54,505 bases of DNA. It comes from an uncultured Thermoplasmatales archaeon. GTDB lineage: Archaea; Thermoplasmatota; E2; UBA202; DSCA01. The position numbers were made by a program, and so were the translations under genes. This document shows positions 26,568 to 48,286 of this stretch, in pieces; positions within the stretch are counted from its first letter, which is position 1; every line of letters starts with the position of its first letter. Where the stretch lies: NCBI GenBank assembly GCA_964514975.1, contig CAZESS010000016.1:1-54505 (forward strand), read 5' to 3'. The notes under the pieces were generated by a model that was not told the origin of the DNA, did not search any database, and saw only the letters and a list, made by a program, of their open reading frames with translations.

Positions 26568-27338
26568 ATGTGTGAAAAAAGAAAAACGCTCGTTGTCGGT
26601 GCGGTAGCTCTCCTGGTTTCCCTTGCTGTTCTCGCGGTAAGTTTCCCCGGGACGTCGGCGGACGAGGACCCATTTGTCATTATCGGGCATGTCACCCGGA
26701 ACGGTGACCCGGTGTCCGGGGTTACGGTTGAGGCGGTCAACCAGCGGACGGACGACGTGCTCTCCGACGATACCGATGCAGACGGGGTGTACATCATCAC
26801 CCTTGGTGGGCCGCCGCATCCATGGGAAATCGGCGATACCATCCTGATGCGGACGACAGGTCATGGCTGTCTGCACGGGGAGACATCGTTTTCCATCACC
26901 CGGTCGGTGGTCGCATCGCAGCCCGTCTGGGCGAACATCACCATGCAGGCATCGCTTGAGGCGGGATTTTCTTTTATGCCGGATGCACCCCGGGCGGGCC
27001 AGATGGTCAACTTCACCGACAAGTCGACGGGTACCGTTACCAACTACACCTGGGAGCTCGGGGACGGCAACCGCAGCTTTGTCTCACAGCTTTCTCATGT
27101 CTACACGGAGCCCGGCAACTACACCGTCTCTCTTACCGTTCGCTGTGACTCGGTTTCCACGTCGGTGTCCCATGTCGTCGCCGTTCAGCCAGCGCATGGC
27201 AACCATTCAGGCAACAACACCAACGGCACCAACGGAAAAAACACTACGGATGACGGCGATGACACGCCCGGTATGCTGCTGCCGGCGGGACTCCTCGCCA
27301 TCGTTGCCGTCCTCGTAATATTTAAAAGATGGAGATAA
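26568..27338 (+). CDS. Surface protein: carboxypeptidase-regulatory-like domain + PKD + PGF-CTERM-like anchor
   Basis: Signal peptide; GHVTRNGDPVSGVTV..TDADGVY; PKD (FTDKS..YTWELGDG..HVYTEPGNYTVSLTV); Asn/Thr/Asp linker; DTPGM + TM + KRWR. Confidence 0.85.
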   Translation: MCEKRKTLVVGAVALLVSLAVLAVSFPGTSADEDPFVIIGHVTRNGDPVSGVTVEAVNQRTDDVLSDDTDADGVYIITLGGPPHPWEIGDTILMRTTGHGCLHGETSFSITRSVVASQPVWANITMQASLEAGFSFMPDAPRAGQMVNFTDKSTGTVTNYTWELGDGNRSFVSQLSHVYTEPGNYTVSLTVRCDSVSTSVSHVVAVQPAHGNHSGNNTNGTNGKNTTDDGDDTPGMLLPAGLLAIVAVLVIFKRWR

Positions 27339-27352
27339 ATGTATATATTGCG

Positions 27353-30300
27353 ATGAAAAACACCGTTTACCTCGTTGTTGTCCTCCTTGTTTTGTCATTT
27401 GTTCCATTGCAGGTGGAATCAGATGGCCATTACACCATCTGGGTGAAGGTCACCCGTGACGGCCAGCCGCAGGAAAACGCCACGGTTACCTTTACCAACC
27501 TTGCGAACAACCAGACCAGCCCGACCTTTGAACAGGGCGATGGATTCTACGGGACGAACCTGGTGAACATCAACTGGGATTACGGTGACACCGTGCTCGT
27601 CGAGGCCGCATATGGCGCCTACACTGGTTCCAACTCCACCGTGCTCACCCGCCAGGGCTCCACGTATGGAGACTGGCTGAACATCACGCTGCTCGCCGAC
27701 CAGTGTCCCAGCCGGCCGTCGAATCCAATGCCGGCGGACAGCGCGACCGACCAGCCGCTCAACGTCACGCTTTCCGTCGACGTCCACGATGACAACGGCG
27801 ACGCCATGGATGTCACGTTTTACAATGCCAGCGGCGACATCGAGATAGGAACCGTTACCGATGTTCCCTCGGATGGCACCGCCAGCGTTTCATGGACCGG
27901 CCTCACCGTTAACACGACCTATACATGGTACGCGGTCGCCGACGACGGCACCTGCACCAACCAGTCAGCCACCTGGCAGTTCACCACCCGGCCGCCCGGC
28001 TATTACATGCTCAACGTGTCAGCGCAGCCGTCGGGCACGGGCAGCTTCACCGTCAGCCCTGATAACGATACCTATGTGGAGGGCACCATGGTCAACGTCA
28101 CCGCCACCCCGGCCGCTGACTACCGGTTCGACCACTGGGATGTCAACGGCACAACGAGCACGGACAACCCTCTTATCCTGGTGATGGACGGCGACAAAAC
28201 CGTCACGGGACATTTCACGCCCGTCCAGTACACGCTCCACACCAGCGTTGACCCGTCCGGCAGCGGCTCCGTCAGCCGCACCCCGCCGGGCAGCAGCTAC
28301 GATGTCAACACCACGGTAACACTCGAAGCCGATGCCGGCGCCGGGTACCTGTTCAGCAACTGGAGCGGGGACCTCACCGGCACCAGCAACCCTGACACCG
28401 TGACCATGAACGCGAATAAAACCGTGACCGCCCATTTCACCGAAAACCAGCCCCCGAGCATCGCCATCACATCCCCGATGCAGGGTGCCGTGGTATCGGG
28501 GACAATCATGATACAGGGCACCGCGAGCGATCCAAACGGAGACGACACCATCCAGGAGGTACAAATAAAAATAGGCCAGGGAAGCTGGACCACGACATCG
28601 GGTACCACCTCCTGGCAGCACACATGGAACAGCACCACGGTTCCAGATGGAAACCATACCGTCCATGCCAGGGTGTCAGACGGCCAGCTTTCCAACACCA
28701 CCTCGGTCAATGTCACCGTCAACAACAACCATCCCCCCGCGGCGCCATCGGTGGACGGCCCGGCGGAGGGACAGACCAACACCTCATACACGTTCGCTGC
28801 GACGTCGACCGACCCCGACAATGACACCCTGCGGTATGGATTCGACTGGGACGACGACGGAACGGTGGACACCTGGACGACCTATCATTCCCCGGGCGAC
28901 ACGGCCACGTGCAACCATACATGGACGGTGGAGGGCACCCATGCCGTCCGGGCCATCGCCGAGGACGAGCACGGCGTGCAGAGCGACTGGAGCACCCCGC
29001 ATTCAATCGTCATCGGCGGGCAGGATACCCTGCCTCCGAACGCAAGCCTGGTATATGGTACGCCGTCGGCGAACCTGTCCCATGATGGCACCACGTACCC
29101 GGCGCTTGCCCCCGTGACGCCGCTCTGGGTCAATGCCACCGACGGCAACGGGACGGGCGCCGCCGCTGTCAACGTTACCGTGTGGCGGAATAGCACGATG
29201 CCCGGCAACTACACCCGGGTTGACACCATGACCGTGGGCGACAACGATGCTAACGACAGCGACCCCCGCACCGGCGTTATCTCTGTGGAGCTGCATTTCG
29301 ACGACGGCGGCTTTTACAGGGTTGCCTGGAATGCCACCGACTACGCCGGCAACCCTTCGACGACGGATTCCATGGATATCGCAATGGATGACGAAGCGCC
29401 CCTTCTCAACAAGACCGTCGGCGAGCCATCCTATGAAGGCCCCGGTCTATATGGCGCCGGCAACTGGACATGGGTGAACTGCAGCACGCCGGTCTGGCTC
29501 AACGTCACCGACAGGGGCTGCGGTGGAGGCGTCGGCGTCGCACGGATGGACATCCAGGTATACTGGAACGAGACCCGGGTTCCATCGGGCCAGGTGCAAA
29601 ACCTGACCGGCATCGGCAATCTCACCATATATGACAACGGGCCGCTGGACAGGGACGGCAGCGCAGGTTCCATCGCCTATACCTTCAGCTTCTGGCGGGA
29701 GGGCTACCATGTGCTCGAGATAGAGACAGTTGACCATCTGAACAACAGCAACGGGTCCACCGAGCATGGAATGGTTGACTGCTCCCCGCCGACGTCCCGG
29801 GTCCAGCACGTCGTTCCCTTTGAACAGCGGGCTCCCTTCAATGTGACCGTCACCGATGCGGCCGATGCCACCTCTCAGGGAGCAGGTGTCAATACGCTGG
29901 CGCTCCTGTATGCCTACAGCCAGGACAACGTTACCTTCAGCGACTGGCGGTGCTTTGCCACATGGAATGTTTCCACGGCCAGCCGGCATGCTGTTTCCAA
30001 CTGGACGGTTTCCTTTGACCCCGATGAAGGCCATGGCTACTACCGCCTCGTCTCGCGGGCATCCGACCATCTGGGCCAGGTGGAGCCGATATCGGGATAT
30101 GACACCATATGCTACAACAACGCCTCGCTGTCCCTCACCTTTGGCGAGCCCTATCATGACGGCTGGATATCGCTGTCCACCCCTGCCACCATCTCCGCCC
30201 ATGTCGAGCCGGAGCCCGCCATCTACTACCGGGTCTACAGCAATGGAAGCTGGCGGCCAGCGCCCGGAGATGGCGTGGGAGACAACGACAGCTTTTACCG

Positions 30301-30877
30301 CTACAACGGCTCATTCATCATGGAGGCGCATGGATGCATCCATGGCAACGGCACCATCGAGTTCTACGGCAACGGCACCGCCATGGGCAGCGCATCGTTC
30401 ATGCTGGACACCCGGCCGCCCACCTTTGAGCAGACAGGCGGGACGTCTTTCCTGGTTTGTGACAACATCTCGCTCGACGTTGTCTGCGGCGACGCGGGCA
30501 GCGGCATCGCCACGGTGGAGTTCTATGCCAACTACAGCATTGACAACATGTCCTGGAACGCGGGAGCGCATGCGGGGTCAGATGGTGCGGCGCCGTTTTC
30601 CTTTGCATATGGATTTCCCGCCGGCGTGGGTTTCTACCGTTTTTCGTTCAGGGCGGTCGACGCGGTCGGCAACACCGCGACCACGCATCCGGGAGAGCCG
30701 GTACGGTTTTTCTCGCCCGACGTCAACGGCGACGGCGCTGTCAACATCCAGGACCTCGTTTGTATCGGTTCATACTGGCAGGACCCCCTCGACCAGGACA
30801 CACATCAGTATGACATAAACGGCGACGGCGCTGTCAACAGGCCGGATCTCGACATCGTAGCCCGGTCTCTCCCCTGA
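27353..30877 (+). CDS. Secreted multi-Ig protein with a C-terminal dockerin-like module
   Basis: Signal peptide; two InlB-B-repeat-like units (YRFDHW, YLFSNWSGD); Ig and PKD domains; C-terminal PDVNGDGAVNIQDL...YDINGDGAVNRPDL duplicated Ca-loop. Start set at MKNTVY (ORF track start 27329). Confidence 0.85.
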   Translation: MKNTVYLVVVLLVLSFVPLQVESDGHYTIWVKVTRDGQPQENATVTFTNLANNQTSPTFEQGDGFYGTNLVNINWDYGDTVLVEAAYGAYTGSNSTVLTRQGSTYGDWLNITLLADQCPSRPSNPMPADSATDQPLNVTLSVDVHDDNGDAMDVTFYNASGDIEIGTVTDVPSDGTASVSWTGLTVNTTYTWYAVADDGTCTNQSATWQFTTRPPGYYMLNVSAQPSGTGSFTVSPDNDTYVEGTMVNVTATPAADYRFDHWDVNGTTSTDNPLILVMDGDKTVTGHFTPVQYTLHTSVDPSGSGSVSRTPPGSSYDVNTTVTLEADAGAGYLFSNWSGDLTGTSNPDTVTMNANKTVTAHFTENQPPSIAITSPMQGAVVSGTIMIQGTASDPNGDDTIQEVQIKIGQGSWTTTSGTTSWQHTWNSTTVPDGNHTVHARVSDGQLSNTTSVNVTVNNNHPPAAPSVDGPAEGQTNTSYTFAATSTDPDNDTLRYGFDWDDDGTVDTWTTYHSPGDTATCNHTWTVEGTHAVRAIAEDEHGVQSDWSTPHSIVIGGQDTLPPNASLVYGTPSANLSHDGTTYPALAPVTPLWVNATDGNGTGAAAVNVTVWRNSTMPGNYTRVDTMTVGDNDANDSDPRTGVISVELHFDDGGFYRVAWNATDYAGNPSTTDSMDIAMDDEAPLLNKTVGEPSYEGPGLYGAGNWTWVNCSTPVWLNVTDRGCGGGVGVARMDIQVYWNETRVPSGQVQNLTGIGNLTIYDNGPLDRDGSAGSIAYTFSFWREGYHVLEIETVDHLNNSNGSTEHGMVDCSPPTSRVQHVVPFEQRAPFNVTVTDAADATSQGAGVNTLALLYAYSQDNVTFSDWRCFATWNVSTASRHAVSNWTVSFDPDEGHGYYRLVSRASDHLGQVEPISGYDTICYNNASLSLTFGEPYHDGWISLSTPATISAHVEPEPAIYYRVYSNGSWRPAPGDGVGDNDSFYRYNGSFIMEAHGCIHGNGTIEFYGNGTAMGSASFMLDTRPPTFEQTGGTSFLVCDNISLDVVCGDAGSGIATVEFYANYSIDNMSWNAGAHAGSDGAAPFSFAYGFPAGVGFYRFSFRAVDAVGNTATTHPGEPVRFFSPDVNGDGAVNIQDLVCIGSYWQDPLDQDTHQYDINGDGAVNRPDLDIVARSLP

Positions 30878-30990
30878 CAGCCGTGCTTTTTAGAAGGGCA
30901 CTCCAGAAAAATATAGAAATTTATTTAAAGAATGAGTATATTCCTTAATCTAACGAATATGCGGATGCATAAGAATAAGGAGGAATAAAA

Positions 30991-33900
30991 ATGAGTAAAG
31001 CACCTAATGGAAAAGATATAATGAACAAGAAAAAGGGTATAGCAATCGTCATCGCTGCGTCGCTGCTGGCGATGGCAGGAGCTTTTATTCTTTCAGTTGA
31101 CACGGAAGCAGGAGAAACCACCCCGCTCACCATAACAGGATACGTCTATGACACCGACGGGACGACACCCGTCTCGGGGGCTACGGTGACCATCAGGGAT
31201 CAGGATACCGGTGCATGGGGCACCAACACCTCTAACGCCACCGGATTTTTCAAGGTCGACATGCGGACCGTGCCATCGGATATGCCATGGTCCGAATGGT
31301 TCATTGGCGACCAGTTGTATGGCGTCGCGACCGACGGTACGATGGATGGCGTCAACACCACCATGACCACCGATCCCAACGGACTCCACTGGATGAACTT
31401 CACGCTGGGCACCCCCGCCACCACCAAGACGGTCGGCGCGCCCGAGCACCTCAAATACAACTATGATACGGGCAGCGCCAACAGGGGCTACCTGGTTTCC
31501 CCCGAGATACACCTCGGCGGCCCGACCGCCACGCTCTCGTTTTACACCTGGTGGCAGATAGAGTCTTCGAACCCGGTCGACAACGACCTCATGAACGTCT
31601 ATCTTTCGACGACGGGCGGCTACCTGGATGGCACCGAGGTGAACCTCACCGAGCAGCAGGACTCCATCAACCCGGGTACCAATCCCGCGGGCGGCGGCCC
31701 GCATTCGTTCCTGACCCCCGCCGGTCTCAACACGATGCCCGGCTCATGGGATTCCATGACATATGACCTCACTGACTGGGTCGGCGAAAACGTCACCATT
31801 ATATTCGAATTTGATACAGTGGATGGTGTGTATAACTACTGGGAGGGCTGGTATCTCGACGACATACGCATCGGTTCCTATGGCACTTTCTTCGACGATG
31901 TTGAAAACGGCGTTGGCAACTGGAGCTACAACGGCCTCTGGCATATCGATGACAGGCGGAGCTATTCCGCCAGCCATGCCTGGTACTATGGTATGGAGCA
32001 CAGCTATGTCACCGAGGAAACGTTGTTCAATATGGCCGCCACCGGGAACTATACTAACATTACATACGATATATGGTACAATCAGACCGGATGGCAGGGC
32101 CCGTTCAACTACACGGAACCATTTAATCTAACCGGCGAATGCAAACATTACATCGAGTTCTTCGCGGACAACGCCTCCTACAACGACGAGCCGCTGCGCA
32201 ACCAGACACATTACGTTGACATGAGCCCGCCGACCTCGACCATGGAGCTCGGCTCCCCGAACGCGACGCTGGAATACGAGGGCGAGAACTTCTCGACCAT
32301 CAGGACGTGCACGCCCATGTGGATCAACGCAACCGATGAGGTTGCCGGCATCGAGGAATGTGCATCCGGCGTTGAATGGCTCAACTACACCGTCTGGCGG
32401 AACGAGGTACCCAACGACTACGAGCTCATAGAAACGGTCAGCATCCATGACAACGACGAAAACGACATGGACAAGCGGCCCGGTTTCATCTCGGCGGAGC
32501 TCCATTTCGACGAGGAATGCTTCCATGAGATAAAATGGGACGTCGAGGACTACGTGGGCCATCGGGCCGACCAGCAGTCCATCGACATCTCCGTTGACGG
32601 CACCGCGCCGACCATCGAGAAGACCATCGGCGAGCCGAAGTATGTCGGCCTCGGCAACTACGGCGCCATCAACTGGACATGGGTGAACTGCAGCACCAAT
32701 TTCACCTTCCACGTCACCGACAGCGGCTGCGGCGGAGGCATCGGTGTCGAGGAGTTCGGCATGAAGATTTACTGGAACGAGACCCGTGTCCCCCAGGGCG
32801 ACGTACAGGATTTCACCCTGATAGAGACCATCGTCGTCCATGACGGCGGCCCGCAGGACCTCGACGGCGAAGAGAACGGCGAGATACTGTATAACTATTC
32901 ATTCAACCAGGAATGCTTCCACGAGCCCGAGATGTGGGCGGTCGACGAGGTCGGCAACGAATACAAGTTCAAAGAAAAAGACATGGTCGACTGCACCCCG
33001 CCGGCGATACGTAAGGATGTCGACAAGGTCGTCGCCTACGAGCAGACGGAGATGAACAACGCATCAGATATCGGCTACGGCGGCGAATGGCAGCGGTTCC
33101 AGGCACCCTGGAGCTACATGGACGCCGTGCAAATCCATCTCTGCGGTACCTTCTATGAGGGTGTTACCGTGCAGGTGTATGACAACCTTTCCCACAATCC
33201 ACTTCGAACAGCCACTCTTGATATAGCGGATGTTCCTGTGAACGAAAGCGACTACTTCTGCGGATGGCTACAGCTTCATCTGGACGAGCGGCTTTACACC
33301 GAGCACAACGCATCATACTGGCTCCACGTTACATATGGCGGCACCTCGGGCATGGTCTACTGGAACGCCAGCGACAATGACCCGTATCCGTGGGGCAACG
33401 GCACCATCGGCGGCAGGCCGAACTGGAATGACAGCCGTGACTACACCTTCAAGATAGAGTATTATCCCGTCGTGCTTGACGACATGACTCCAACCCTTCT
33501 TGACTACATGTTCGCGGAATACAACGAAACCGGCGACTACGATTATCTGCATGAGTCCTGGGTGACCACCGAGGCGTTCTTCAACCTGTCCTCATGGGAC
33601 GAGGGCTGCATGGACGGCGTCGGCCTCGACACGCTCGAATACCGCGTGTGGTGGAACGGCACCTGGACCGAATGGATGAACTACACCGAGCCGTTCAACT
33701 TCACCGAGGAATGCGTCCATTACATCGAGATACGGGCGACCGACCTGCTGGGCAACACCCGCATCGTCAACCAGACCCATTACGTCGATGACAGCCCGCC
33801 CGAGCTGCAGGTGCAGTACCCCGACGTGCATGGCTTCTACAAGGAAAACGACACCGGCAAACAATTTGTCCGCGCGAACAAGACGTTCTATCTCAACCTC

Positions 33901-36900
33901 ACCGACATGCCCGAGGAACCCTGCGCCGTTGGCACGAAAAACTTCACGTTCTACTGGCGGTACGAGTACACCAACTTCACCGCGCCGCTCATAGAAACGC
34001 ATCCGGCGGATGGAGGCGATAATGAGTATCCCGGCGAGCTGGTCTACGCGAAGGGACACTGGTGGTGGAAGCTGACGCAGCCCGAGGACAGGTCCATCGC
34101 GCTGAATTTCACGCGGGAATGCCAGCACACCATCTATTACTGGTATGAGGCCTCTGACTGGCTGGACAACGAAGTGGAAACCGATGTGCAGGAAGAAGTC
34201 ATCTACGTCGATGAGCATTACCCGGAGATGCAGAAGGAGCATCCCGACTGCTACGACACGGTGAACGCCAACGATACCATCTATGTACATCCGTCAGAAG
34301 AACTTGGCATCGATTCCCCGTGGACAACGCCCTCCTATCCGAACAGCTGGATGTCTACCGCTGATTGGACGGAGTTCTACCCCGAACATGGAAGAGAATA
34401 CCTCGGTGTTGACGACGAACCCCATTTCGATGGATTTATCAGCAACGGCAACGACATCGTTGACGACTGCGACTACATCGAGCTTTACGACGTGGAATAC
34501 GGCGTCTACCGGTTGTACCACGTGGAGAACCTGACGGTCACCCTGGAGATATACAACGATACGCTCGACGAGGTCAAGTATGTCGACTTCGTGTCCTACT
34601 GGGATGGATACTGGCCGGCCGACTCGGACTTCGCCGAGATTGAGTCCAGTCCGATTGGCACATTGTGGAAGGAAATGCACGCCGACTTCGGCACCATGTA
34701 CAACCTCACAGCGTATGAATCACAGAATGGATTTAGCAGCGCAACCATCACCCTGAACAACACGGCAACCGGCGAGTGGCACAACTGGACAGTCATGGAT
34801 GCCACCTGGGACCTCGTCCTTGACCCTGTGCCGTTCATCCAGAAATGCGCCAAGATAGACCTCACCGCCAATGACACGCCGCAGATCCTCAAGCTGGTCG
34901 ACCAGTTCCAGAACGAGGGAGCACGAGCCGACGAACTGCAGTTAAAGGACAACATCCCCTACTGGCCATGGGACGCACAGCGGTTCATGGTCACCGAGAA
35001 CGTGACACATATCAACGAAATATGGCTCTACCTCAACTGGTCCGGTCCGAGCAACGTCTCGATATACCTCCACAATCACACGGACCCCGAGTCCTTCACA
35101 CCGGGACAGGAGATAGCGCAGGCGAACGCGACATTGACCGGCGCGGACGACGGCTGGGTCAAGTTCATGTTTGATGACCCGGTACCCGTCGACTCGACGA
35201 CGACCTATGTCATCGATGCATTCAGAAAGCCAAACAGCGCCCAGGTGCAGTGGATCCACTCGGAGAACAGCAGCTACCTCAACGGCTACGCCACGATTAG
35301 CGGCGAAGACGTAACGGATGGCGACTGGAAGTTCTCCGTGGTTGCATACCGTGAAAACCCCTGCGCCAGCGGCATCGAAGACATCTACTACGGCTACGAG
35401 TTCAACGGCACCTATCACCCCATGGACATGGAGGACAACGAGTCCACCTACGGCGATATCGTCAACATCAGCAAGTATTATGACGATGTGGAGATCGAGG
35501 AGGAGTTTGGCGGACGCTATCTCTGGTACACCTACGACCCGGCCAAGGGTGTTCATTTCCATGAGGAATGCATCCACTGGCTGTATTACTGGACGAAGGA
35601 CAACGTCTGCCATCACACCGACGTGCACCGGCAGGTGTACCACGTCGACGAGTACAACCCCGTCGTTTACAAGGAACACCCGGACCATGGCTACTCCGCT
35701 CCCGTGGAGATATCCGTCGAAGAACGCTTTGACAATGCCTCGGATGCCTACGAGGGCGAGTTCCACGTGCGCAACAAGTGGTATAGCTCGTCCACCTACC
35801 CGGACGGCTGGCTACGGAACCCGTCAGGCCAGAACATTTACAAGGACCAGAGCATCGACCTCACCATCACCAACCATGACCTCAACAACGACCTGACGCT
35901 CACCATCCGCGTCGAGGAAGTCGTCGGAGACGAGGGTATCACCCTTGAAAACGGCAGCGACGTCAACCAGAAGACGTACACCGTTTTCGTTCCTGCTGGA
36001 GGCAGCAATGTGCTGACCATCCCCGTCTACGATTACAGGATATTCCTCGAATGGGGCGTCTGGCACTGGGAGGTCGTCAGCATGGAGAACATCACCCAGT
36101 ACCTCCGTGCCGGTGCGAAGATAAACCTCACCGCCGATGACCCCGGCTACTGTGCATCCGGCGTGCAGGGCATCTACTATCGCTACGAGTGGAACGACAC
36201 GATGTACCCGCAGACCAGTCATCCTGCGGCCGTTGACGGCAGCACGCTGTCCGGCGAACCCGAGATAGCAAACTACTGGTGGTATCTCTACAACGACAGC
36301 GAGGACATCACCTTCAGCGAGGAATGTGTCCACGACCTCTACTACTTTGCGAAGGACCGCAGCTGCCACAACAGCACCCTGCACCACCAGGTCTATCACG
36401 TGGACGACTCCGCGCCCGTGGTCGAGGAGGAACTGCCCGACCATGGTGCCATCGGCAACACCACGCAGTCACTATGGGAGGGTTTCTATCTCCCCGTCGG
36501 CAATGGCTGGGCAACCGTGAACGACACGGGCTCCGGCAGCACCCACAGCTACTGGGACCTGCACACCGACGAACCGTACTTTGATTACCACGATTTGACT
36601 AATGCATATAAGGGCGATTACGACGCCCTCGCCTGGACGGACACCGACGGCAGCGCGGATAGCTGGCTTATCTCACCAAAGGTCGCTATCCCCGAGGACG
36701 GCAACCTGTCGTTCTGGTATGCCACCTATCGCACCAGCAGTTATGACGCATCCTTCAAGGTGGCTGTCAACAACGTGAGCACGCAGACGGACACGTCGGC
36801 GTTCACCACGGTCTGGGATTCAGGTCCATTCGGCGACAACACGTACCGGAAGACGGAGATAGACCTGTCCGCGTATGCGGGACAGGAGGTCTACATCGGA

Positions 36901-41829: not shown

Positions 41830-41848
41830 AATATCTGAGGTGATAACC

Positions 41849-44800
41849 ATGAACGCTACAAGGAAAACAGTGATTGCGGCCCTCCTCCTCTCTTTCCTCT
41901 TTGCAGCAGCAGCCCCGGCCGTGCACTCGGAGAACGGAGCCATATCAGCCACGAATGCTTCCATGACCCTCATGCCCGAACAGGACGCCGTCTACAGCGG
42001 GGAAACGTTCAACGTGAGCGTGTGGATACAGGCCGACAACGTGAGCACCGCCCAGGCACGGATAGGATTCAACGAATCCATATTCCATGTCACCAATGTC
42101 GCCCTGGCAAACACGAGTCTCAACATGTTTCTGCAGCCAGGGGCAGGCATCAACAGCACCGGCATCGACAACGACAAGGGCATCGTGGGCGACATCGTCG
42201 GGTTTGCAACCCCGCCGGTAAACGCATCTGACGGGATGAAAATAGCGACCATCACCTTCGAGGTTATCGCACCTGGCGGGTACACCTCTCTGATACATTT
42301 CATAGAGGCGAACTCCGAAATAGACAGCTACGATGTGGACTACCATAATGCCACCATGAAGGCCAACCCGGTTGACGTCACCATCGAGCCGTCACATCGG
42401 CTCATCGGCAACACGGCCACCACATACAACGTCAACATAACCCCGAACGGAAACCAGATCAGAGCGATGAACTTTACGCCTGCATATGACCCGACATCCC
42501 TCGACATCACAGACGTGACAGCCGACGGTCTGTTCCCGATTGTTACATACAATGCGACCAAAAACGTCGTGTTAGCGTTCCATCCAACCAGCACGTTCAC
42601 CACAAATGGCACGGCAGCTATCATCCACTGCACGCCCCTGCAGAGCGGCATGAGCACCATAACCCTCACGGACTTCACCATCGTCGGAAACAATACCATG
42701 CTCCCCGTCAACCTGGAGCAGCCGGAGGCAACGCTTGAAGCAGACATCGACCCGCCCAATGTTACCATGGAGGTCGGGCAGCCACGCATGGACCCCATCG
42801 ACCTGACCAACAATACCTACGGCATCCGCGCACATCTCTATGAAAGCGGCGCCTTCACGATGTACACGGCGCCGGGCGACCTGTCGCTCCTGTACCCGGG
42901 TGAAACGGGCCACCAGACAATCAGGGTCGACGGCACCAACTACTCAACCATGGGCAACCTGAGCACCCATGTCACCACGCCGCTGACCCAGACAGGCCCC
43001 AACACAGCACATATCGAATACACCCTCCCGGAGAACATCAAGGTGCGGTTTGACTTCCAGCTCATACACAACGCCACCAAGTTCACCATCACCACCGAAA
43101 ACATGGACGACGAAGCACACCAGATAGGCGTGAAATGGTACTATGATACGCAGGTCGCAGACAACGACGGAGCACCCATCTACATCCCCGGCCAGGGCGT
43201 CCAGACCCATGAAAAAACCTACTACAACCCAGCCTTCGAATACTTCTCCGGGTATGACCAGCTCGTCGACCCCACGCTGGTGTCCACCGGATGGATATCA
43301 CCATCGAAGGGTGCCACCACGCCCGACGTGGTCATGCTCAGCTACTGGCCCGACTCAGCCGGACAGGAATGGTGGTACGAGACCGACCCCACGTATGATT
43401 TCACGTCCGACAGCGCCGTCGCCCTGTTCTGGAACGAGACCACCGTCGCGCCATCTGCATCACGAGACATCGTGACCTTCTACGGCATCGGGGAGCCCTT
43501 GGCAACCGGCAACTACAGCATCGTGGACATCTACCTCGATGACCCCACCGGCGAATACCAGGCCGGCGAAACGGCAACCATAAGCGTTGACACCGTGGCC
43601 GCCGGGCAGGCATTCTCCGGCTCCGTCCGCCTGATTGTATCCAATGATGGCACAGAATATTTCAACCAGAGCGCATCGGTATCCATGGACGCAGGTGGAA
43701 TCACCACCACGACATTCGACATGACGGTTCCGAGTCTCTCCGACGAATACCTGGATGTCACAGCGACACTGTACAACCAGACCATTCCCGACATCGACAG
43801 CAGAACAGAAGAAAACATCATGCATGTATCATCGGGTGCTGCCTCCGCTGTCACCGACATAGCTGCAGACAAGCCAACCTACACCGTCAACGAAACAGCG
43901 ACCATTAGCGTCGACGCAGAGGCAACGGGACAGGCTTTCACCGGCTCCGTCCGCCTCATCGTTTCCCACGACGGCACGGAATACCTGAACACCACCCATC
44001 CGGTGTCCATCAACGCCGGCGGTGTCAACACCACGACCTTCAGCCTTGACATCCCCGACCTCCCGGGACAATATCTCGATGCTCATGCAACACTGTACAA
44101 CGACACGGGCGCCGTTGCTGATACACGGATAGAGGACAATCTCCTGTTCATCAGCTCCTACCAGAAAACCTTCTACTACGTGACCAGTGGAACGCCGCTC
44201 TACATCAACGCCACCGATGCCCACAACTTCACCATCGACTACCGCATCTGGAACGGAACCTGGCATGCATACAACGCAACGGACAACGTCACCTTCGACC
44301 TGTCCGGCCATGTCACAGAGGGACAGAAGACCTATTACGTGGAATACACCGCGACAGACGAGTTTGGCAACACCGCGGCAACCGGCAACCAGACCCTGTA
44401 TCTCGATGACACCCCGCCCACGACCACCGCCACCAGGCATCCGGCGACGCCCGACGGCGACAACGGCTGGTACGTCAGCGACGTCATCGTCAACCTGACC
44501 GCAGATGACGGCGACGGAAGCGGCGTCAGCCGCACCTACTATTCCACCGGCAGCCAGTTCCCGCAGCCCTACGACGGCAACATCACCCTCGAGGCAGATG
44601 GCACGCACACCCTCACCTACTATTCCACTGACAACCTCGGGAACACCGAGGGCGACCAGCAGCTCACCGTCAACATCGACCAGACCAGGCCCGAAGTCGA
44701 CCTCACCGCAACCGGCACCCAGAACAACGGATGGTACACGTCCAGCGTCGACGTCACCCTCGAGGCCGATGATACGACATCCGGCGTGGCCGGCATCTGG

Positions 44801-45832
44801 TATCGCATTAACGATGGCGACTGGACAGCCTACGACGAGCCGTTCACCCTGTCAACCGACGGAACCCACACCATCGACTACTACGCGCACGACAGCGCCG
44901 GCAACAACGCATCGGGTAGCGCAACCATCAGGATAGACACCACGAATCCCTCGGCGTCGATATCGCTGTCAGGCCCCCAATCGGGCGGCGTATACACCGG
45001 CACGGTCACCATATCGCTGTCCGGCACCGACACAGGGTCCGGCATAGCGAGCCTGAAATACCGCGTCAACGGTGGCTCATGGAGCACCAGCGGCTCATCG
45101 ACCTCGTTCACCCAGACAGCCGACGGCAGCTACACCGTTGAATGCTACGCGGTCGACACCGCGGGCAACCAGGGCTCGACGACGAGCAGGTCGTTCGAGA
45201 TTCTCAAAAACCAGAAGCCAACAGCCGCCTTTTCCACCTCGCCCGACGACCCGACAGATGTTGACTCGATAACGTTCAACGCGTCCGCTTCAACCGACAG
45301 CGACGGCTCCATCGTCAGCTACACATGGGACTTCGGCGATGGTGATACCGGCACTGGAAAAACAGCCAGCCATACCTATGACGACAACGGCACCTACACC
45401 GTCACCCTGACCGTGACCGACGACAAGGGCGCAACCGATACCGCCACCAAGCAGCTCACCGTGGCCAACAGCCCGCCCGATGCGGTCATCCAGACCACTC
45501 CGACCGACAAGGCGAAGATAGACGAGGAGATAACGTTCACCTCGCTTTCCAGCGACGAAGGCGGAGAGATCGTCAACTACACATGGAACTTCGGTGACGG
45601 AAACATGAGCTACACGGAAAATGCGACTCACAGCTACGACGAGGCAGACGACTACACGGTCACCCTGACCGTAACCGACGATGACGGGGCCACGGACACC
45701 GCCCAGGTGACGCTCACCATAGAGGAGGAGCAGCCCGACTACCTGCTGCCAATCCTCGCGATCATCGTGCTGGTGATCATCGCGGTCATCGTGGTGCTCG
45801 TCTGGCGCCGCAGGAGCATGGGCAGCGAATAA
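41849..45832 (+). CDS. Membrane-anchored scaffoldin-like protein: two N-terminal cohesin-like modules, Ig repeats, two PKD domains, C-terminal TM helix
   Basis: RBS GAGGTGA within the 19-nt gap after the upstream stop; GETFNVSVWI..AQARIGFNESIFHVTNV..IATITFEVI and YNVNI..MNFTPAYDPTSLDITDV..GTAAIIHCTPLQSG; PKD YTWDFGDG/YTWNFGDG; LLPILAIIVLVIIAVIVVLVWRRR. Confidence 0.82.
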   Translation: MNATRKTVIAALLLSFLFAAAAPAVHSENGAISATNASMTLMPEQDAVYSGETFNVSVWIQADNVSTAQARIGFNESIFHVTNVALANTSLNMFLQPGAGINSTGIDNDKGIVGDIVGFATPPVNASDGMKIATITFEVIAPGGYTSLIHFIEANSEIDSYDVDYHNATMKANPVDVTIEPSHRLIGNTATTYNVNITPNGNQIRAMNFTPAYDPTSLDITDVTADGLFPIVTYNATKNVVLAFHPTSTFTTNGTAAIIHCTPLQSGMSTITLTDFTIVGNNTMLPVNLEQPEATLEADIDPPNVTMEVGQPRMDPIDLTNNTYGIRAHLYESGAFTMYTAPGDLSLLYPGETGHQTIRVDGTNYSTMGNLSTHVTTPLTQTGPNTAHIEYTLPENIKVRFDFQLIHNATKFTITTENMDDEAHQIGVKWYYDTQVADNDGAPIYIPGQGVQTHEKTYYNPAFEYFSGYDQLVDPTLVSTGWISPSKGATTPDVVMLSYWPDSAGQEWWYETDPTYDFTSDSAVALFWNETTVAPSASRDIVTFYGIGEPLATGNYSIVDIYLDDPTGEYQAGETATISVDTVAAGQAFSGSVRLIVSNDGTEYFNQSASVSMDAGGITTTTFDMTVPSLSDEYLDVTATLYNQTIPDIDSRTEENIMHVSSGAASAVTDIAADKPTYTVNETATISVDAEATGQAFTGSVRLIVSHDGTEYLNTTHPVSINAGGVNTTTFSLDIPDLPGQYLDAHATLYNDTGAVADTRIEDNLLFISSYQKTFYYVTSGTPLYINATDAHNFTIDYRIWNGTWHAYNATDNVTFDLSGHVTEGQKTYYVEYTATDEFGNTAATGNQTLYLDDTPPTTTATRHPATPDGDNGWYVSDVIVNLTADDGDGSGVSRTYYSTGSQFPQPYDGNITLEADGTHTLTYYSTDNLGNTEGDQQLTVNIDQTRPEVDLTATGTQNNGWYTSSVDVTLEADDTTSGVAGIWYRINDGDWTAYDEPFTLSTDGTHTIDYYAHDSAGNNASGSATIRIDTTNPSASISLSGPQSGGVYTGTVTISLSGTDTGSGIASLKYRVNGGSWSTSGSSTSFTQTADGSYTVECYAVDTAGNQGSTTSRSFEILKNQKPTAAFSTSPDDPTDVDSITFNASASTDSDGSIVSYTWDFGDGDTGTGKTASHTYDDNGTYTVTLTVTDDKGATDTATKQLTVANSPPDAVIQTTPTDKAKIDEEITFTSLSSDEGGEIVNYTWNFGDGNMSYTENATHSYDEADDYTVTLTVTDDDGATDTAQVTLTIEEEQPDYLLPILAIIVLVIIAVIVVLVWRRRSMGSE

Positions 45833-45874: not shown

Positions 45875-45886
45875 GATTCAGTGAAA

Positions 45887-45894
45887 TTTAAATA
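45887..45894 (+). promoter_or_regulatory. TATA box
   Basis: GAAA-TTTAAATA upstream of ATG 45941. Confidence 0.55.
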
Positions 45895-45940
45895 GCGGTA
45901 TCCAATACAACGTATAACAACACACAGGGGGTTATCCACC

Positions 45941-48286
45941 ATGAAAAAAACATATCATGTCCTGAGTAGTCTATCAGTAGCGTGTTTGCTTGTCCTGGCA
46001 GCATTTTCCGGCGTTATAGCCGATGCCGCCGCTCCAGTGGCTGCAACGACGACCATGAGTATCTCTCCGCAGGCCCAGACAGTGGCGGTCAACGACACGT
46101 TCACTGTCGACATCGACATTACTTCATCGGAGGCGTTACGGCTCGGGCAGGCCGGTCTCATGTTTACCTCCGGCATCCTCGAGGTCACCGATGTCTCGGA
46201 CGGTGGCATGTTCGATATCTGGGCGCCCGACATGAGCTCAAACGTTCTCAATATCAGCAATCAGAACGGCACCATCAAGGGGATGATTGGGATGAGCCCG
46301 GTCAACCCGGTTTCCACCGGAACCCTTGCCGTCGTTACCTTCAAAGCCACGGCAGCGGGCACAGCCGACCTGCAGTTCATCCTCTCCGATGACCAAACCA
46401 TCGTGAACACGGCAAACGAGACCTACATCCCGGCGACCCAGAACGGCACGGTTACCGTCACCGCTGGCAACCAGCCGCCGTCAACCACGATTACGAGCGG
46501 TCCCACGGGCACCATCTACACCCGCAACGTCTCGTTCACCTGGACGGGCAGCGACGACAACACCTCGGCAGCCAATCTGACCTATACATACCAGCTTGAC
46601 GGCCCCGGCCACGGCGGATGGTCCCGGTGGACATCTGCAACAACCGTGTCATATACCTGGCTCGACGCCGGCACCTTCACCTTTTCAGTCAAGGCGCAGG
46701 ACCACGAGGGCGCCACGGGCGACCCGGCCACGCGAACGTTCACCGTGGCAGACGACACGGCACCGGTCATATCAGAGGTCACCGTCCACAAACAGCCGCA
46801 TGATACAACCGCGACCGTCAACGTTTCATGCAGCGTTTCCGACAACTTCGCTGTCGGCTCCGTCACCCTCCAGGTCACAAGAATCGGGGACGGCGTCCTT
46901 TTCAACAACAGCATGTATTCAACGAGAGGCGGCTACTACTACTACTACTCATATGAATATGGCGAGGGCAACTACACGTTCACCATATGGGCTCGCGATA
47001 CCAGCGGCAACATGGCATCCCGTCAGGACAGTTTCAATGTTACCGGGGCAGACGTCACTCCGCCCACGATATCAGATGTCGAGGCAAGCCCCTCCCCCGC
47101 AGAGGCCGGCGACACCGTCGTTATCTCCGCCACGGTCACCGATGCACGGAGCGACATCGCCGACGTATACCTCGACCTTACCTATCCCAACGGAAGCGAG
47201 CATCACAACTTCTCCATCCTGCAAAACCTGAGCGGCGAAAGCCTCTACTTCTATGAGCACGCCTACACAGACCTCGGCAACTACACCTTCTTCATCTACG
47301 CCGTCGACGGGGAAGGCAATGGCAACACCTCCACGCTGCAGACGTTCGAGGTCGAGGACACCACGCCGCCATCCATCTCCAACGTCACGGCGTCACCCTC
47401 GCCGACGAGTCCCGGTCAGGCCGTCAACATATCCGCAGAGATCGACGATGTCGTCTCCGTCGACGAGGTTTACCTCGAGATAACCGACCCCGACGACGAC
47501 GTCACCAACCACTCCATCACCGGCAATGTCACCGGTGGCACCTACTACAGCAGCCGTACCTACACCGGGCTGGGCACCTACCAGTACACCATCTACGCAA
47601 TCGACGACCATGGCAACGCCGTCACCTCCCCACAGCACACGTTCACCATCCAGGATGTCGCCCCGCCAGCGGTTGACCTCCTCGCGCCCAACAAAAACCG
47701 CAATCTTTCCGGCACCGTGGACATCACATGGAACGCCACCGACAACTATTACGATGCAGCAGACCTCGAGGTCACCCTCAAATACAGCGCCGACGACGGC
47801 TCATCATGGCAGACCATCGTGGCCAACCTGGCGAACAACGGCACCTATGAATGGAACACCGCCGGGCTGGACGACGGCACCGAATACCTGGTGAAAATCA
47901 CGGTTATCGACCCATCGGACAACCAGGGAACCGATCTTTCCAATGGCACCTTCACCCTGGACAACACCGACCCGACCTTCACGCTGGATAAACCAAACAC
48001 GGGCAACCTCTACCTCTTCGACCGACAGGTCCTCCCGGTTCTCCGCAACAAGGCAGTGGTCGTCGGAAAAATCACTGTCACGGTGGCGGCCAGCGACGCA
48101 ACATCAGGCGTCGACTGTGTTTCCTTCCTCGTGGACGGCGTCGAAAAGAAATCAGACCAGGCAGCTCCCTATGAATGGCTCTGGGACGAAACCGCGTTTC
48201 TCTCACACACGCTCAAAATAATCGTCTACGACCACGCCGGCAACCGGGCTGAAACATCCGTATCGGTCAGCATATACAACCTCTAG
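45941..48286 (+). CDS. Secreted protein with an N-terminal cohesin-like module and about six Ig/FN3-like domains
   Basis: Signal peptide; ISPQAQTVAVNDTFTVDIDI..AGLMFTSGILEVTDVSDGGMF..GTLAVVTFKATAAGTADLQF..NGTVTV; D(T/V)xxP-I-S repeats; C-terminal LYLFD..FLVDG..APYEWLWD domain; no TM anchor. Confidence 0.85.
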   Translation: MKKTYHVLSSLSVACLLVLAAFSGVIADAAAPVAATTTMSISPQAQTVAVNDTFTVDIDITSSEALRLGQAGLMFTSGILEVTDVSDGGMFDIWAPDMSSNVLNISNQNGTIKGMIGMSPVNPVSTGTLAVVTFKATAAGTADLQFILSDDQTIVNTANETYIPATQNGTVTVTAGNQPPSTTITSGPTGTIYTRNVSFTWTGSDDNTSAANLTYTYQLDGPGHGGWSRWTSATTVSYTWLDAGTFTFSVKAQDHEGATGDPATRTFTVADDTAPVISEVTVHKQPHDTTATVNVSCSVSDNFAVGSVTLQVTRIGDGVLFNNSMYSTRGGYYYYYSYEYGEGNYTFTIWARDTSGNMASRQDSFNVTGADVTPPTISDVEASPSPAEAGDTVVISATVTDARSDIADVYLDLTYPNGSEHHNFSILQNLSGESLYFYEHAYTDLGNYTFFIYAVDGEGNGNTSTLQTFEVEDTTPPSISNVTASPSPTSPGQAVNISAEIDDVVSVDEVYLEITDPDDDVTNHSITGNVTGGTYYSSRTYTGLGTYQYTIYAIDDHGNAVTSPQHTFTIQDVAPPAVDLLAPNKNRNLSGTVDITWNATDNYYDAADLEVTLKYSADDGSSWQTIVANLANNGTYEWNTAGLDDGTEYLVKITVIDPSDNQGTDLSNGTFTLDNTDPTFTLDKPNTGNLYLFDRQVLPVLRNKAVVVGKITVTVAASDATSGVDCVSFLVDGVEKKSDQAAPYEWLWDETAFLSHTLKIIVYDHAGNRAETSVSVSIYNL

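Follow-up and report, generated by a model that had tools for sequence, protein, structure and literature searches.

In the window, by which the whole analysed stretch of 54,505 nucleotides is meant, five genes follow one another on the plus strand (26568-27338, 27329-30877, 30991-41829, 41840-45832 and 45941-48286). A hydrophobic, signal-like segment lies at the N-terminus of every encoded protein, in agreement with the run of secreted proteins that an earlier note on this DNA had proposed. The first gene (26568..27338) encodes a small surface protein of 256 aa with a signal-like N-terminus, a CarboxypepD_reg-like domain, a PKD domain (Pfam PKD_4, 57.6 bits) and a C-terminal TM segment followed by KRWR; its hydrophobic segments comprise residues 5-23 and 232-250. 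The product of the second (27329..30877) is a secreted adhesin-like protein of 1182 aa, composed of InlB B-repeats, Big_7, PKD and OmpL47-type barrels, that carries a canonical type I dockerin at its C-terminal end. The third gene (30991..41829) encodes a secreted giant of 3612 aa, in which a CarboxypepD_reg-like head, an InhA-like MAM domain, four choice-of-anchor J domains, OmpL47-type barrels and a C-terminal dockerin were recognized, together with eight copies of the motif 'EC.H...Y...D'; approximately two thirds of its length have no Pfam match. The fourth (41840..45832) encodes a membrane-anchored two-cohesin protein of 1330 aa (1327 aa if the ATG at 41849 is used), termed P0004, that is built of a signal-like N-terminus, cohesin 1, cohesin 2, an A2M/Ig-like region, three OmpL47-type barrels, two PKD domains, a TM helix and an RRR tail, in this order. 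The last protein (781 aa, 45941..48286) is secreted and consists of a signal-like N-terminus, one cohesin and the Ig-like domains Y_Y_Y, Big_13, DUF7743 and Big_7; neither a TM helix nor a dockerin was detected in it by hydrophobicity and Pfam scans.

Directly upstream of the locus, also on the plus strand, there are two paralogous giants of the NosD/right-handed β-helix type (1866 and 2093 aa, 14373..26457). Since β-helix proteins precede dockerin-cohesin pairs also on contigs C4 and C5 of the same genome, these giants may be part of the same surface cassette. The surface proteins are acidic (D+E 10-17.5% vs. K+R 2.7-5.9%), and their density of N-x-S/T sequons is 3.0-5.3 per 100 aa. A gene for an archaeal type IV pilin is located within the window, and an L11/Spt5-type gene pair adjoins the locus. 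The L11 of the window shows 62% identity to L11 of a Thermoplasmata archaeon MAG and 60% to that of a Thermoplasmatales archaeon MAG; both genes of the pair likewise adjoin the locus in genome G004, and in genome G030 L11 only is in view.

The type I dockerin is a duplicated segment of about 22 residues, each consisting of a 12-residue, EF-hand-like Ca loop and a helix. Both dockerins are present where the earlier note had placed them, with the support of Pfam Dockerin_1 (PF00404, curated cut-off 22.9 bits), and the duplicated loop-helix feature is complete in the 1182-aa protein and partial in the giant. The dockerin of the 1182-aa protein (30719..30871 in the genome scan, plus strand) comprises two 12-residue Ca-loop motifs, DVNGDGAVNIQD and DINGDGAVNRPD, each followed by a stretch that reads as helix-forming, and scores 39.0 bits in the whole protein (E 9.2e-10), 46.5 bits as an isolated module and 45.8 bits in the genome scan. 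The dockerin of the giant (41650..41826, plus strand) ends with WTG; its first loop, DLNGDGRVSTAD, is canonical and followed by a helix, and its second loop contains a 5-residue insertion that is absent from all seven orthologues in the alignment, so that this dockerin may be weakened. It scores 17.0 bits in the whole protein, below the cut-off, vs. 25.8 bits as an isolated module, above it, and 22.2 bits in the genome scan (41650-41802) or 26.2 bits with its neighbours in frame. In the dockerin fold, two Ca-loop/helix units pack antiparallel to each other. The model of the last 75 residues of the giant is of middling confidence (pLDDT 71.4) and contains two helices (27-40 and 63-74); Foldseek ranks dockerins first with this model, yet with E values of 0.74 or more. 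In a search of the PDB with the profile of dockerin orthologues the best match was a true dockerin, 2y3n_B (E 2.1e-10).

All three cohesin-like modules described in the earlier note were found in place, on the plus strand: cohesin 1 (41951..42367, residues 38-176) and cohesin 2 (42368..42754, residues 177-305) of P0004, and the cohesin of the 781-aa protein (46064..46459). Pfam Cohesin (PF00963) has a curated cut-off of 24.1 bits, which is exceeded by the module of the 781-aa protein (29.5 bits isolated, E 9.5e-7; 29.1 bits in the genome scan), and the isolated modules of P0004 score below it (16.4 bits, E 0.011, and 23.2 bits, E 8.4e-5); whole-protein Pfam scans at E<=0.01 list Cohesin for neither of these two proteins. 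The HMM searches proposed in the earlier note thus bear out the dockerin of the 1182-aa protein and the cohesin of the 781-aa protein, carry the giant's dockerin over the cut-off only when isolated or taken with its neighbours, and leave both cohesins of P0004 below it, their identity coming from the fold instead. The aligned orthologue modules in genome G003 reach 54.6 and 38.0 bits, and the profile of orthologues of the P0004 cohesin region matches cellulosomal cohesins in the PDB (best 4ums_A, E 5.8e-7).

The cohesin fold is a flattened nine-stranded β-sandwich of the jelly-roll type. The AlphaFold model of residues 38-305 of P0004 is all-β with a pLDDT of 91.6, and its structure was compared with 48,161 representative PDB chains. 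For cohesin 2, ranks 1-16 are occupied exclusively by solved cohesins (Z 13.7-16.1, rmsd 2.0-3.4 Å over 121-130 residues); the best match of any other fold, 7me6 (Z 11.2), trails them by 2.5-5 Z units. The best fold match of cohesin 1 is a type III cohesin, 2zf9_A (Z 11.8, rmsd 2.1 over 123 residues), and the top Foldseek match of the model is the cohesin dyad 3l8q (E 3e-13). Since the fold comparison settles the matter, the two low-scoring modules of P0004 were accepted as cohesins, and the jelly-roll on which the earlier note had made its proposal depend is seen in the model of both, with cohesins as the best matches (Z of 13.7-16.1 and 11.8). The dockerin and cohesin modules of the locus are genuine.

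Cohesins 1 and 2 of P0004 show no significant similarity to each other (BLASTP E 5.5), and the two dockerins of the locus are of different types (31% identity over 45 residues); two divergent cohesins and two dockerin types would fit one socket per plug. P0004 has the architecture of a membrane-anchored scaffoldin, as had been proposed: a signal-like N-terminus, two mutually divergent cohesins and, at the C-terminus, a hydrophobic stretch (approximately residues 1301-1322), i.e., the TM helix YLLPILAIIVLVIIAVIVVLVW, followed by the basic, predicted cytoplasmic tail RRRSMGSE (45740..45829, plus strand). This type of TM helix and basic tail is kept in seven of seven P0004 orthologues with a complete 3′ end, and in four of the six cohesin proteins of the genome. 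The two dockerin proteins lack a second hydrophobic segment, consistent with their description as anchorless, and in all six full-length dockerin proteins of the genome the hydrophobic segment is N-terminal only. The ribosome-binding site of the scaffoldin gene and its likely start (41839..41851, plus strand) are GGTGA at 41839-41843 and ATG at 41849. Since the stop codon TGA of the giant occupies 41827-41829, the gap is 19 nt, which confirms the spacing and the separate ribosome-binding site noted before; the GTG start at 41840 given by the ORF tool falls within the ribosome-binding site. Where both genes are present (seven loci), they overlap by up to 13 nt or are separated by up to 28 nt.

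Profile scans of the contigs revealed seven dockerin and about nine cohesin modules in the genome. In five cases (C16, C4, C5 twice and C14), the gene directly 3′ of one with a terminal dockerin begins with a cohesin. The locus is therefore not unique, being one of at least five dockerin/cohesin pairs. In a sample of 41 genomes of the order, dockerins occur in 36 and cohesins in 37. For at least 50 of the 122 dockerin matches in this sample, in at least 30 of the 41 genomes, the 700 nt 3′ of the dockerin include, on the same strand, the start of a cohesin (random expectation about 0.14); these genomes are kin and not independent, and the 50 pairs belong to a few conserved pair families. Adjacency is no rule, since 63 of the 122 dockerins have no adjoining cohesin among the matches listed, a number to which short contigs and 25 unlisted cohesin matches contribute. 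Synteny in related genomes, a check suggested in the earlier note, is found in all eight fetched loci, from two families of the order: the giant with its dockerin, the two-cohesin/TM gene and the one-cohesin gene follow in this order, and the position of the P0004 gene directly 3′ of the dockerin giant is kept across both families. In the class as a whole cohesins occur in 67 of 151 genomes, and such systems are common there. Segment-wise identities across orthologues reveal no clean co-variation of dockerin and cohesin. The conserved layout of paired genes predicts which modules would pair.

The cargo contains no recognizable enzyme. No enzyme domain was found, and HExxH is absent from all seven surface proteins of the locus, in line with the earlier note, which had seen neither a glycoside hydrolase nor this motif. 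The dockerin-tagged peptidases for which it had proposed a scan of the genome did not come to light: none of the seven dockerin matches of the genome lies in a protein with a catalytic Pfam domain, PhoD_N and Pur_ac_phosph_N on these proteins being non-catalytic, fn3-like domains. Peptidase_C25 genes are present, two in the window and one beside the dockerin gene on C7, and a dockerin is absent from all three peptidases. In relatives, 37 dockerin proteins matched 46 families, of which the 25 seen most often all have a binding or structural character (DUF11 15, FG-GAP/propeller 7, CARDB 7, PKD 5); no glycoside hydrolase is among these 25, and NosD/β-helix occurs in only two of the 37 proteins. 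The term 'cellulosome-like', used in the earlier note, hence fits the coupling of modules and not the function, since no examined dockerin protein has a recognizable enzyme domain; CBMs are also missing, and a chain carries only two cohesins.

Taken together, the locus probably represents a non-cellulosomal cohesin-dockerin module for cell-surface display in an archaeon of the Thermoplasmata type. From modules, topology and gene order we infer that neighbours would bind each other, which dockerin would enter which cohesin and what the assembly might do. After export, the TM helix at its C-terminus would keep the 1330-aa protein in the membrane, the RRR tail facing the cytoplasm, and two different cohesins would be presented at the opposite, N-terminal extremity. 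The giant of 3612 aa, secreted without an anchor, would insert the Ca-binding dockerin at its C-terminus into one of the two, and the 1182-aa protein is probably handled in the same way; its partner is a guess, because the next gene encodes the giant and not a cohesin protein. Large, acidic, adhesin-like proteins, predicted to be heavily N-glycosylated, would thus be tethered non-covalently to the cell. The anchorless, single-cohesin 781-aa protein would be a further partner, perhaps in the role of adaptor or competitor. The binding and structural nature of the cargo makes adhesion, capture of particles or substrates, or formation of a surface coat the likely role.

One may ask if the partners are indeed neighbours. 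The profile of cohesin 1 joins P0004 with the 781-aa protein (E 6.7e-29) and a protein encoded on C26 (E 4.8e-24), and the giant and a 2381-aa protein from C7 are brought together by the 'WTG' dockerin profile (E 1.9e-14), so that several plugs and sockets of one class coexist and could cross-bind. Real dockerins might then use cohesins encoded elsewhere, e.g., the C26 receptor, or those on other cells, be they conspecific or of a different species, with cell-cell adhesion instead of self-display as their role. The 63 dockerins without an adjoining cohesin among the matches listed would agree with this, as would the suggestion that ANME archaea may interact with bacteria through dockerin/cohesin pairing (Chadwick et al., 2022; PMC9012536). 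However, dockerin-then-cohesin order is in strong excess of expectation and the synteny extends over the order, both of which point to neighbours acting together, and secreted dockerin proteins without an anchor of their own need some cohesin on the producing cell, which makes non-neighbour partners unlikely.

It is quite improbable that no complex is formed at all, i.e., that the dockerin-like ends are EF-hand pairs that stabilize the protein or bind a non-protein ligand, and the cohesin-like modules are β-sandwich spacers. The dockerin profile does match EF-hands of calmodulin and troponin C in the PDB (E about 1e-4 to 1e-3), two of the three cohesins stay below the Pfam cut-off, and β-sandwiches are common, with pilins and Ig-like adhesin domains appearing from Z of about 11 downward. 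Yet the E value for a true dockerin is lower than those for calmodulin by at least five orders of magnitude, the first 16 of 48,161 chains for cohesin 2 are cohesins well separated from 7me6, and the co-occurrence and adjacency of both module types would be left unexplained. The unannotated two thirds of the giant, the C25 peptidase genes and the β-helix proteins upstream of the pairs, whose fold is common to polysaccharide lyases, could be taken as signs of a true multi-enzyme complex, a 'proteolysome' or cellulosome analog with enzymes hidden in the giant or dockerin-tagged elsewhere. The lack of catalytic domains in the genome's dockerin proteins, of dockerins in the C25 peptidases and of HExxH in the seven surface proteins, together with the binding and structural families (best 25 of 46) of the relatives' dockerin proteins, makes such a complex highly improbable.

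Cohesin-dockerin pairs are among the tightest protein-protein couplings known and find wide use as building blocks in biotechnology; to our knowledge, almost nothing is known about their roles outside cellulosomes. In this locus and its relatives, across an archaeal order, plug and socket genes lie next to each other, with a plain membrane protein as the socket carrier and adhesin-like giants, not enzymes, as the cargo. This offers a candidate explanation of how large adhesins may be held on the surface of uncultured, protein-degrading sediment or mat archaea, a pairing map that is concrete and can be tested (at least four dockerin types with presumed cohesins in one 2-Mb genome) and a source of possibly orthogonal cohesin-dockerin pairs. 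A broader reading, which is tentative and carries a modest chance only, is that this coupling would be the general mode of building the cell surface in the order and part of the class. If so, at least three or four mutually orthogonal plug-socket types would exist here as adjacent, co-translated pairs, giant glycoproteins of 3000-4000 aa on TM-anchored sockets would form the outer coat and adhesion layer, and gene adjacency would amount to a code from which the specificity of archaeal cohesin-dockerin pairs can be read. Such a code is still missing according to the ANME literature (PMC9012536).

The system is a non-cellulosomal archaeal cohesin-dockerin system, with modules on non-cellulolytic surface and secreted proteins; systems of this kind have been described before from Archaeoglobus and ANME archaea, and no new principle is revealed. 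A literature search returned no description from Thermoplasmata, as the earlier note had supposed. Measured against a cellulosome, the genome has no carbohydrate-active cargo (0/7 dockerin matches in a protein with a catalytic domain), no primary scaffoldin with many cohesins and a CBM (at most two cohesins per chain, apart from a third, weak match in a C4 protein with E 0.098; no CBM match) and no SLH or sortase wall anchor (no SLH match; C-terminal TM and basic tail in 4/6 instead). Like the anchoring scaffoldins of clostridia and ruminococci, P0004 is a cell-fixed cohesin protein predicted to hold secreted dockerin proteins. Its best Foldseek match, 3l8q, is the tandem cohesin dyad of Acetivibrio cellulolyticus, and cohesin 2 matches 3ul4 and 4dh2, the OlpA and OlpC cohesins of C. 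thermocellum, with Z of 13.8-13.9. Unlike in those cellulosomes, glycoside hydrolases and CBMs were not found, a C-terminal TM helix replaces SLH or sortase anchoring, a many-cohesin primary scaffoldin is lacking and the host is an archaeon without a clostridial cell wall.

The best structural matches of cohesin 2 (2vo8_A, Z 16.1; 2w1n_A, Z 15.1) belong to a set of entries (2vo8, 2w1n, 2o4e and 2ozn) for modules of the GH33/GH84 cohesin-dockerin toxin complex of Clostridium perfringens. That system is likewise non-cellulosomal, with single cohesins on large multi-modular secreted proteins and one-to-one pairing; however, it links secreted glycoside hydrolases, whereas here no enzyme is found and one partner is membrane-anchored. 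The A. fulgidus cohesin, represented by 2xdh, has the same fold as cohesin 2 (2xdh_A, Z 14.5, rmsd 2.6 over 122 residues) and is matched by the orthologue profile of the P0004 cohesin region (E 0.0039). Both systems are archaeal and unconnected with cellulose degradation. Here, in contrast, the modules belong to multi-domain proteins of very large size (781-3612 aa), a TM anchor is present in the cohesin carrier, and the system comprises at least five gene pairs per genome, with conservation throughout the order. The non-cellulosomal cohesin and dockerin proteins of A. fulgidus were described earlier (Bayer, 1999; Haimovitz, 2008, as cited in PMC9012536), and specific binding is reported for archaeal pairs in the same source. 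According to the ANME study, ANME-1 and ANME-2 are uncultured archaea with many cohesin/dockerin proteins, as is the archaeon analysed here; their pairing partners are still to be found, with no experimental work mentioned there, S-layer-domain proteins and the substrate-binding proteins of ABC transporters are common in their cargo, and there are proteins that combine up to five cohesins with a dockerin (Chadwick et al., 2022; PMC9012536). Compared with ANME, the cargo here consists of adhesin-like giants, each TM-anchored chain has one or two cohesins, and the genes of plug and socket are adjacent, hence their pairing is predicted.

The locus is best read as a non-covalent surface display system, in which cohesin proteins with a TM anchor, encoded directly downstream, would keep anchorless secreted giants attached to the cell that makes them, with several plug-socket (dockerin-cohesin) types existing side by side in each genome. 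It consists of five consecutive genes on the + strand (26568-48286; 256, 1182, 3612, 1330 and 781 codons), and all five products start with a hydrophobic, signal-like segment; the coordinates that the earlier note assigned to genes and modules were all accurate. The stop codon of the 3612-aa giant (30991-41829, +) is separated by 19 nt from ATG 41849 of the gene for the 1330-aa scaffoldin, and GGTGA is placed five bases 5′ of this ATG, which is the short gap with its own ribosome-binding site that had been described; GTG 41840, the start chosen by the ORF tool, falls within this site. Scans with bacterial-type models gave 14 promoter-like sites (8.6 ± 3.1 in shuffled sequences) and 11 terminator-like sites (14.0 ± 4.5), counts that say nothing about an archaeal host.

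From the N-terminus, the 1330-aa protein contains the signal-like segment, cohesin 1, cohesin 2, an Ig/A2M-like stretch and three OmpL47-type barrels, then two PKD domains and finally a hydrophobic helix of 22 residues with RRRSMGSE behind it. This order predicts a type I membrane protein whose sockets lie at the greatest distance from the membrane, and the C-terminal TM and RRR anchor noticed earlier is present. Neither dockerin protein of the locus, i.e., the giant and the 1182-aa protein (27329-30877, +), has a second hydrophobic segment, in agreement with the view that both are secreted without a membrane anchor, and no NCBIfam match to a PGF-CTERM/archaeosortase sorting signal was found in the five proteins. 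The giant is composed of a CarboxypepD_reg-like head, an InhA-like MAM domain, four choice-of-anchor J domains and OmpL47-type barrels. The seven surface proteins encoded between 14373 and 48286 are strongly acidic and carry 3.0-5.3 N-x-S/T sequons per 100 residues. In the small PKD protein and in all full-length dockerin proteins checked on the window and on contigs C4 and C5 of the same genome, a CarboxypepD_reg- or MG2-like domain directly follows the signal-like segment (window 26568-41829; fetched loci L004, 8943-11444, and L003, 211-1737 and 10592-11527); with scores under the cut-offs (E 2.7e-5 to 1e-4), it may represent a conserved N-terminal 'head'.

Two paralogous NosD/beta-helix giants are encoded upstream (14373-19973 and 20176-26457, +); they have in common long near-identical stretches and a C-terminal region with the end ...FLMRYDPD..PSM.WQGGREF. 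A beta-helix protein of contig C4 ends in a different motif, SFDSY.(V/I)GVSPP.YDF, a near-identical version of which is located near the C-terminal end of the contig C14 cohesin protein. The window also contains a gene resembling those of archaeal type IV pilins (Pilin_N, 39 bits; 9025-9444, +) and, after it, one for a polytopic membrane protein of 553 aa that matches no Pfam family (9575-11236, +), both in a stretch of lower G+C (0.50-0.52 vs 0.62-0.64 in the flanks).

Only the module of the 781-aa protein exceeded the Pfam Cohesin cut-off (29.5 vs 24.1 bits), the two modules of the 1330-aa protein scoring 16.4 and 23.2 bits, and the whole-protein Pfam scan listed Cohesin for neither protein. 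A profile built from the two-cohesin region of the 1330-aa protein and six orthologues (19-36% identity) retrieved PDB cohesins from cellulosomes (best 4ums_A, E 5.8e-7) as well as 2xdh, a cohesin of Archaeoglobus (E 0.0039). AlphaFold2, given a 24-row alignment, modelled the region as all-beta and two-domain (pLDDT 91.6), and the top Foldseek match was the cohesin dyad 3l8q (E 3e-13). When this model was exhaustively compared with 48,161 PDB representatives, ranks 1-16 were cohesin modules, all on module 2 (Z 13.7-16.1, rmsd 2.0-3.4 Å over 121-130 residues). For module 1 the closest structure was a type III cohesin, 2zf9 (Z 11.8); non-cohesin folds set in at Z 11.2. Since fold comparison, profile and model all match cohesins, the failure to fold as cohesin jelly-rolls that would have spoken against the scaffold was not seen for the two modules of the 1330-aa protein. 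Compared with each other, these two modules show no significant similarity (E 5.5). A word-based homologue search with residues 38-305 returned one protein, 95% identical, and a search of 1.84 billion representatives with the orthologue profile described above gave 13,121 proteins at E ≤ 1e-3, of which 102 reached E ≤ 1e-30. Within the top 150 of these relatives, P0008, P0022 and P0048 (1860-2276 aa) have 8, 11 and 9 stretches matching the dyad and are, judging from these matches, scaffoldin-sized multi-cohesin proteins. A search of genome contigs with the whole 1330-aa protein gave 70 loci, mostly of Bacteroidota, all 70 matching only the C-terminal OmpL47/PKD part (779-1329).

At its C-terminus the 1182-aa protein has a textbook pair of Ca-loop/helix repeats (DVNGDGAVNIQD... 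and DINGDGAVNRPD...), with Dockerin_1 scores of 39.0 bits for the whole protein and 46.5 for the isolated end (cut-off 22.9). For the giant's end the corresponding scores were 17.0, under the cut-off, and 25.8, and the genome scan gave 22.2 bits at 41650-41802, or 26.2 together with in-frame neighbours. Its loop 1 is canonical, and loop 2 has a 5-residue insertion found in none of seven orthologues. The profile of this module matched the dockerin 2y3n_B in the PDB (E 2.1e-10), which makes a convincing case for a predicted dockerin; the structural model was middling (pLDDT 71.4), with two helices at the expected places, and in a fold search dockerins ranked first without significance (E ≥ 0.74). 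The two dockerins of the locus are of different types (31% identity over 45 residues). In 26 of 40 fetched dockerin ORFs of relatives (L088-L127) the sequence ends exactly in ...WTG, like the giant and a protein of contig C7, and in nearly all 40 the dockerin is the very C-terminus; the ...WTG end looks like the mark of a lineage-specific dockerin subtype.

The arrangement recurs within the genome (1.96 Mb, 66 contigs, of which the window is all of contig C16). At E ≤ 0.1, 7 Dockerin_1 and 11 Cohesin matches were found, and ORF calling with Pfam placed a dockerin-ending gene directly 5′ of a cohesin-starting gene in five cases: in the window; on C4 (833 aa, then 891 aa with two cohesins, the genes overlapping by 4 nt); on C5 (311 aa, then 655 aa, again with a 19-nt gap); at the C5 start (508 aa, then a cohesin truncated by the contig end); and at the C14 end (a truncated dockerin gene, then a 1861-aa cohesin protein). 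A C-terminal TM segment is present in four of the six full-length cohesin proteins vs none of the six full-length dockerin proteins. Lineage-specific HMMs detected no further hidden cohesins in the genome and placed module 1 of the 1330-aa protein with the 781-aa protein and a C26 protein, and the giant's 'WTG' dockerin with that of the 2381-aa C7 protein. The C5 and C14 dockerins are 68% identical and the cohesins 3′ of them 77%. The 1022-aa C26 cohesin protein (L005, 90-3158, −) has a TM at 913-931 and then a cytoplasmic tail of ~90 residues with a weak Prok-RING_1/zinc-finger match (E 1.3e-4); such a 'receptor' could be signalling or recruiting partners inside the cell. After the C4 pair lies a DUF7289 gene (L004, 4910-6274, −; 34.9 bits), whose N-terminus, …ERGQVGVVVAILMV…, resembles an archaeal class III (prepilin-type) signal, and a similar start is found in genes after the pair in relatives G002 and G003 (L085, L084).

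Of 41 genomes (the window's own and 40 relatives of the same genus, family and order, two being more distant members of the class), 36 gave Dockerin_1 and 37 Cohesin matches, and the genomes without a match include some of 60-97% completeness. When 122 dockerin matches were compared with the 150 cohesin matches listed (of 150 + 25) and three weaker ones of the own genome, a cohesin started 63-687 nt downstream on the same strand for 50 of the 122, in 30 of the 41 genomes; 9 more share a reading frame with a cohesin directly before them (fused cohesin-dockerin proteins), and for 63 neither arrangement was seen among the cohesin matches listed. Random placement would give about 0.14 downstream pairs, and the 50 observed, coming from non-independent kin and a few conserved pair families, show conservation rather than 50 independent events. 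Around giant-type dockerins eight loci were fetched, two of the same genus and six of a second family. In all eight a cohesin protein directly follows the dockerin gene (13-nt overlap to 28-nt gap); it has a TM helix and basic tail in the seven loci with a complete 3′ end, and a single-cohesin protein without TM comes next wherever the contig continues. The gene for L11 follows the cassette on the opposite strand in two loci, as in the window, and Spt5 is also visible in one. L11 of the window shares 62% identity with the protein from a MAG titled Thermoplasmata archaeon, 60% with its counterpart in a MAG titled Thermoplasmatales archaeon and, in a partial match, 44% with that of a Poseidoniales MAG, which supports 'Thermoplasmata-like' and nothing finer. 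At class level, Cohesin occurs in 67 of 151 genomes, including 30 of 68 in one sister family and 0 of 32 in another; in the former, Dockerin_1 is present in 16 of 41 genomes, and the dockerin-then-cohesin order is found there too. Two of its members, G153 and G166, have 35 and 21 Dockerin_1 matches vs 1-13 in the window's own order, and these sets are large expansions.

The window's giant is closer to orthologues of the second family than to that of the congener G003 (30991-42754 vs L076-L083). Identity over the stretch before its dockerin is 45-50% for five second-family loci and 38% for the sixth, L083, vs 35% over 228 aa for G003; for cohesin 2 it is 39-40% with two of these six loci and 27-33% with the remaining four, vs 26-27% for the two congeners. 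The same genus is the closest for the scaffoldin's C-terminal part (53-56%) and for the remainder of the 781-aa protein (59%). The comparison suggests that the cassette's outer part was replaced in an allele-like manner.

Room for a hidden enzyme complex, a reading ranked below surface display, would lie in the giant, over about two thirds of which there is no Pfam match and whose residues 930-1830 gave best scores of 0.82 or lower against the ESM Atlas, in the chance range. No catalytic Pfam domain was found on any of the genome's seven dockerin-bearing proteins, whose families are Ig-like, PKD, fn3-like, MG2, DUF11, CARDB and FG-GAP/propeller, and HExxH is absent from all seven surface proteins between 14373 and 48286, as had been reported for the cargo. 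Dockerin-tagged peptidases, which the earlier note proposed to look for in the genome, were not present among the seven dockerin matches. Three gingipain-type Peptidase_C25 genes lie nearby, none with a dockerin: one complete, with propeptide and PKD domain (5831-8002, −; 172.6 bits), one cut by the contig end (53373-54410, −; 126.4 bits) and one beside the C7 dockerin gene (L002, 15697-17871, −); they fit a protein-degrading lifestyle. From the relatives, 40 of 115 dockerin matches were hand-picked, excluding a conserved ~840-aa family, giants and very short frames, and three ORFs with masked residues were dropped. The remaining 37 proteins contained Dockerin_1 (35), DUF11 (15), FG-GAP/propeller (7), CARDB (7), PKD (5), Cohesin (3) and NosD/beta-helix (2), with no peptidase or glycoside hydrolase among the 25 most frequent of 46 families. 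The proposal of a cellulosome-like cohesin-dockerin surface scaffold was thus largely right as to architecture, the coupling being predicted from the modules, and fails as to function, since no catalytic Pfam domain is found on the genome's dockerin proteins.

Also ranked below surface display are the readings that the dockerins bind partners other than their neighbours, as in cell-cell adhesion, and that no cohesin-dockerin complex forms at all. Across the eight orthologous loci, identities of the dockerin, cohesin 1 and cohesin 2 segments do not vary together in a consistent way; L083, for instance, ranks first for the dockerin (53%) with 28% in cohesin 2, and L080 shows the opposite. A complex prediction of the dyad with the giant's dockerin and two Ca gave 0.02 vs a mark of 0.32 and weighs neither way. 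Speaking against both readings is the conserved order in which an anchorless dockerin protein precedes an anchored cohesin protein. For surface display, the 1330-aa protein offers two unlike sockets that would suit the two unlike plugs encoded at the locus, an assignment that we infer; for the anchorless 781-aa cohesin protein, both gene order and missing TM are conserved.

Cohesin and dockerin modules outside cellulosomes, archaea included, are already established. In the literature outside subscription journals and supplements, most of it judged by title and abstract, no description of such a system in Thermoplasmata was found, as the earlier note had supposed. Passages of Chadwick et al. 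(2022; PMC9012536) state that archaeal cohesin-dockerin pairs bind specifically (citing Bayer, 1999; Haimovitz, 2008), that large archaeal scaffoldins were not found in earlier surveys (citing Peer, 2009) and that ANME archaea have many cohesin/dockerin proteins whose pairing is not known, and a passage of a 2026 paper describes NosD-like proteins adjoining dockerin domains on ANME-related contigs (PMC13452462). Beyond these systems, the present locus contributes a plug-socket layout that is operon-encoded across the order and from which partners can be predicted.
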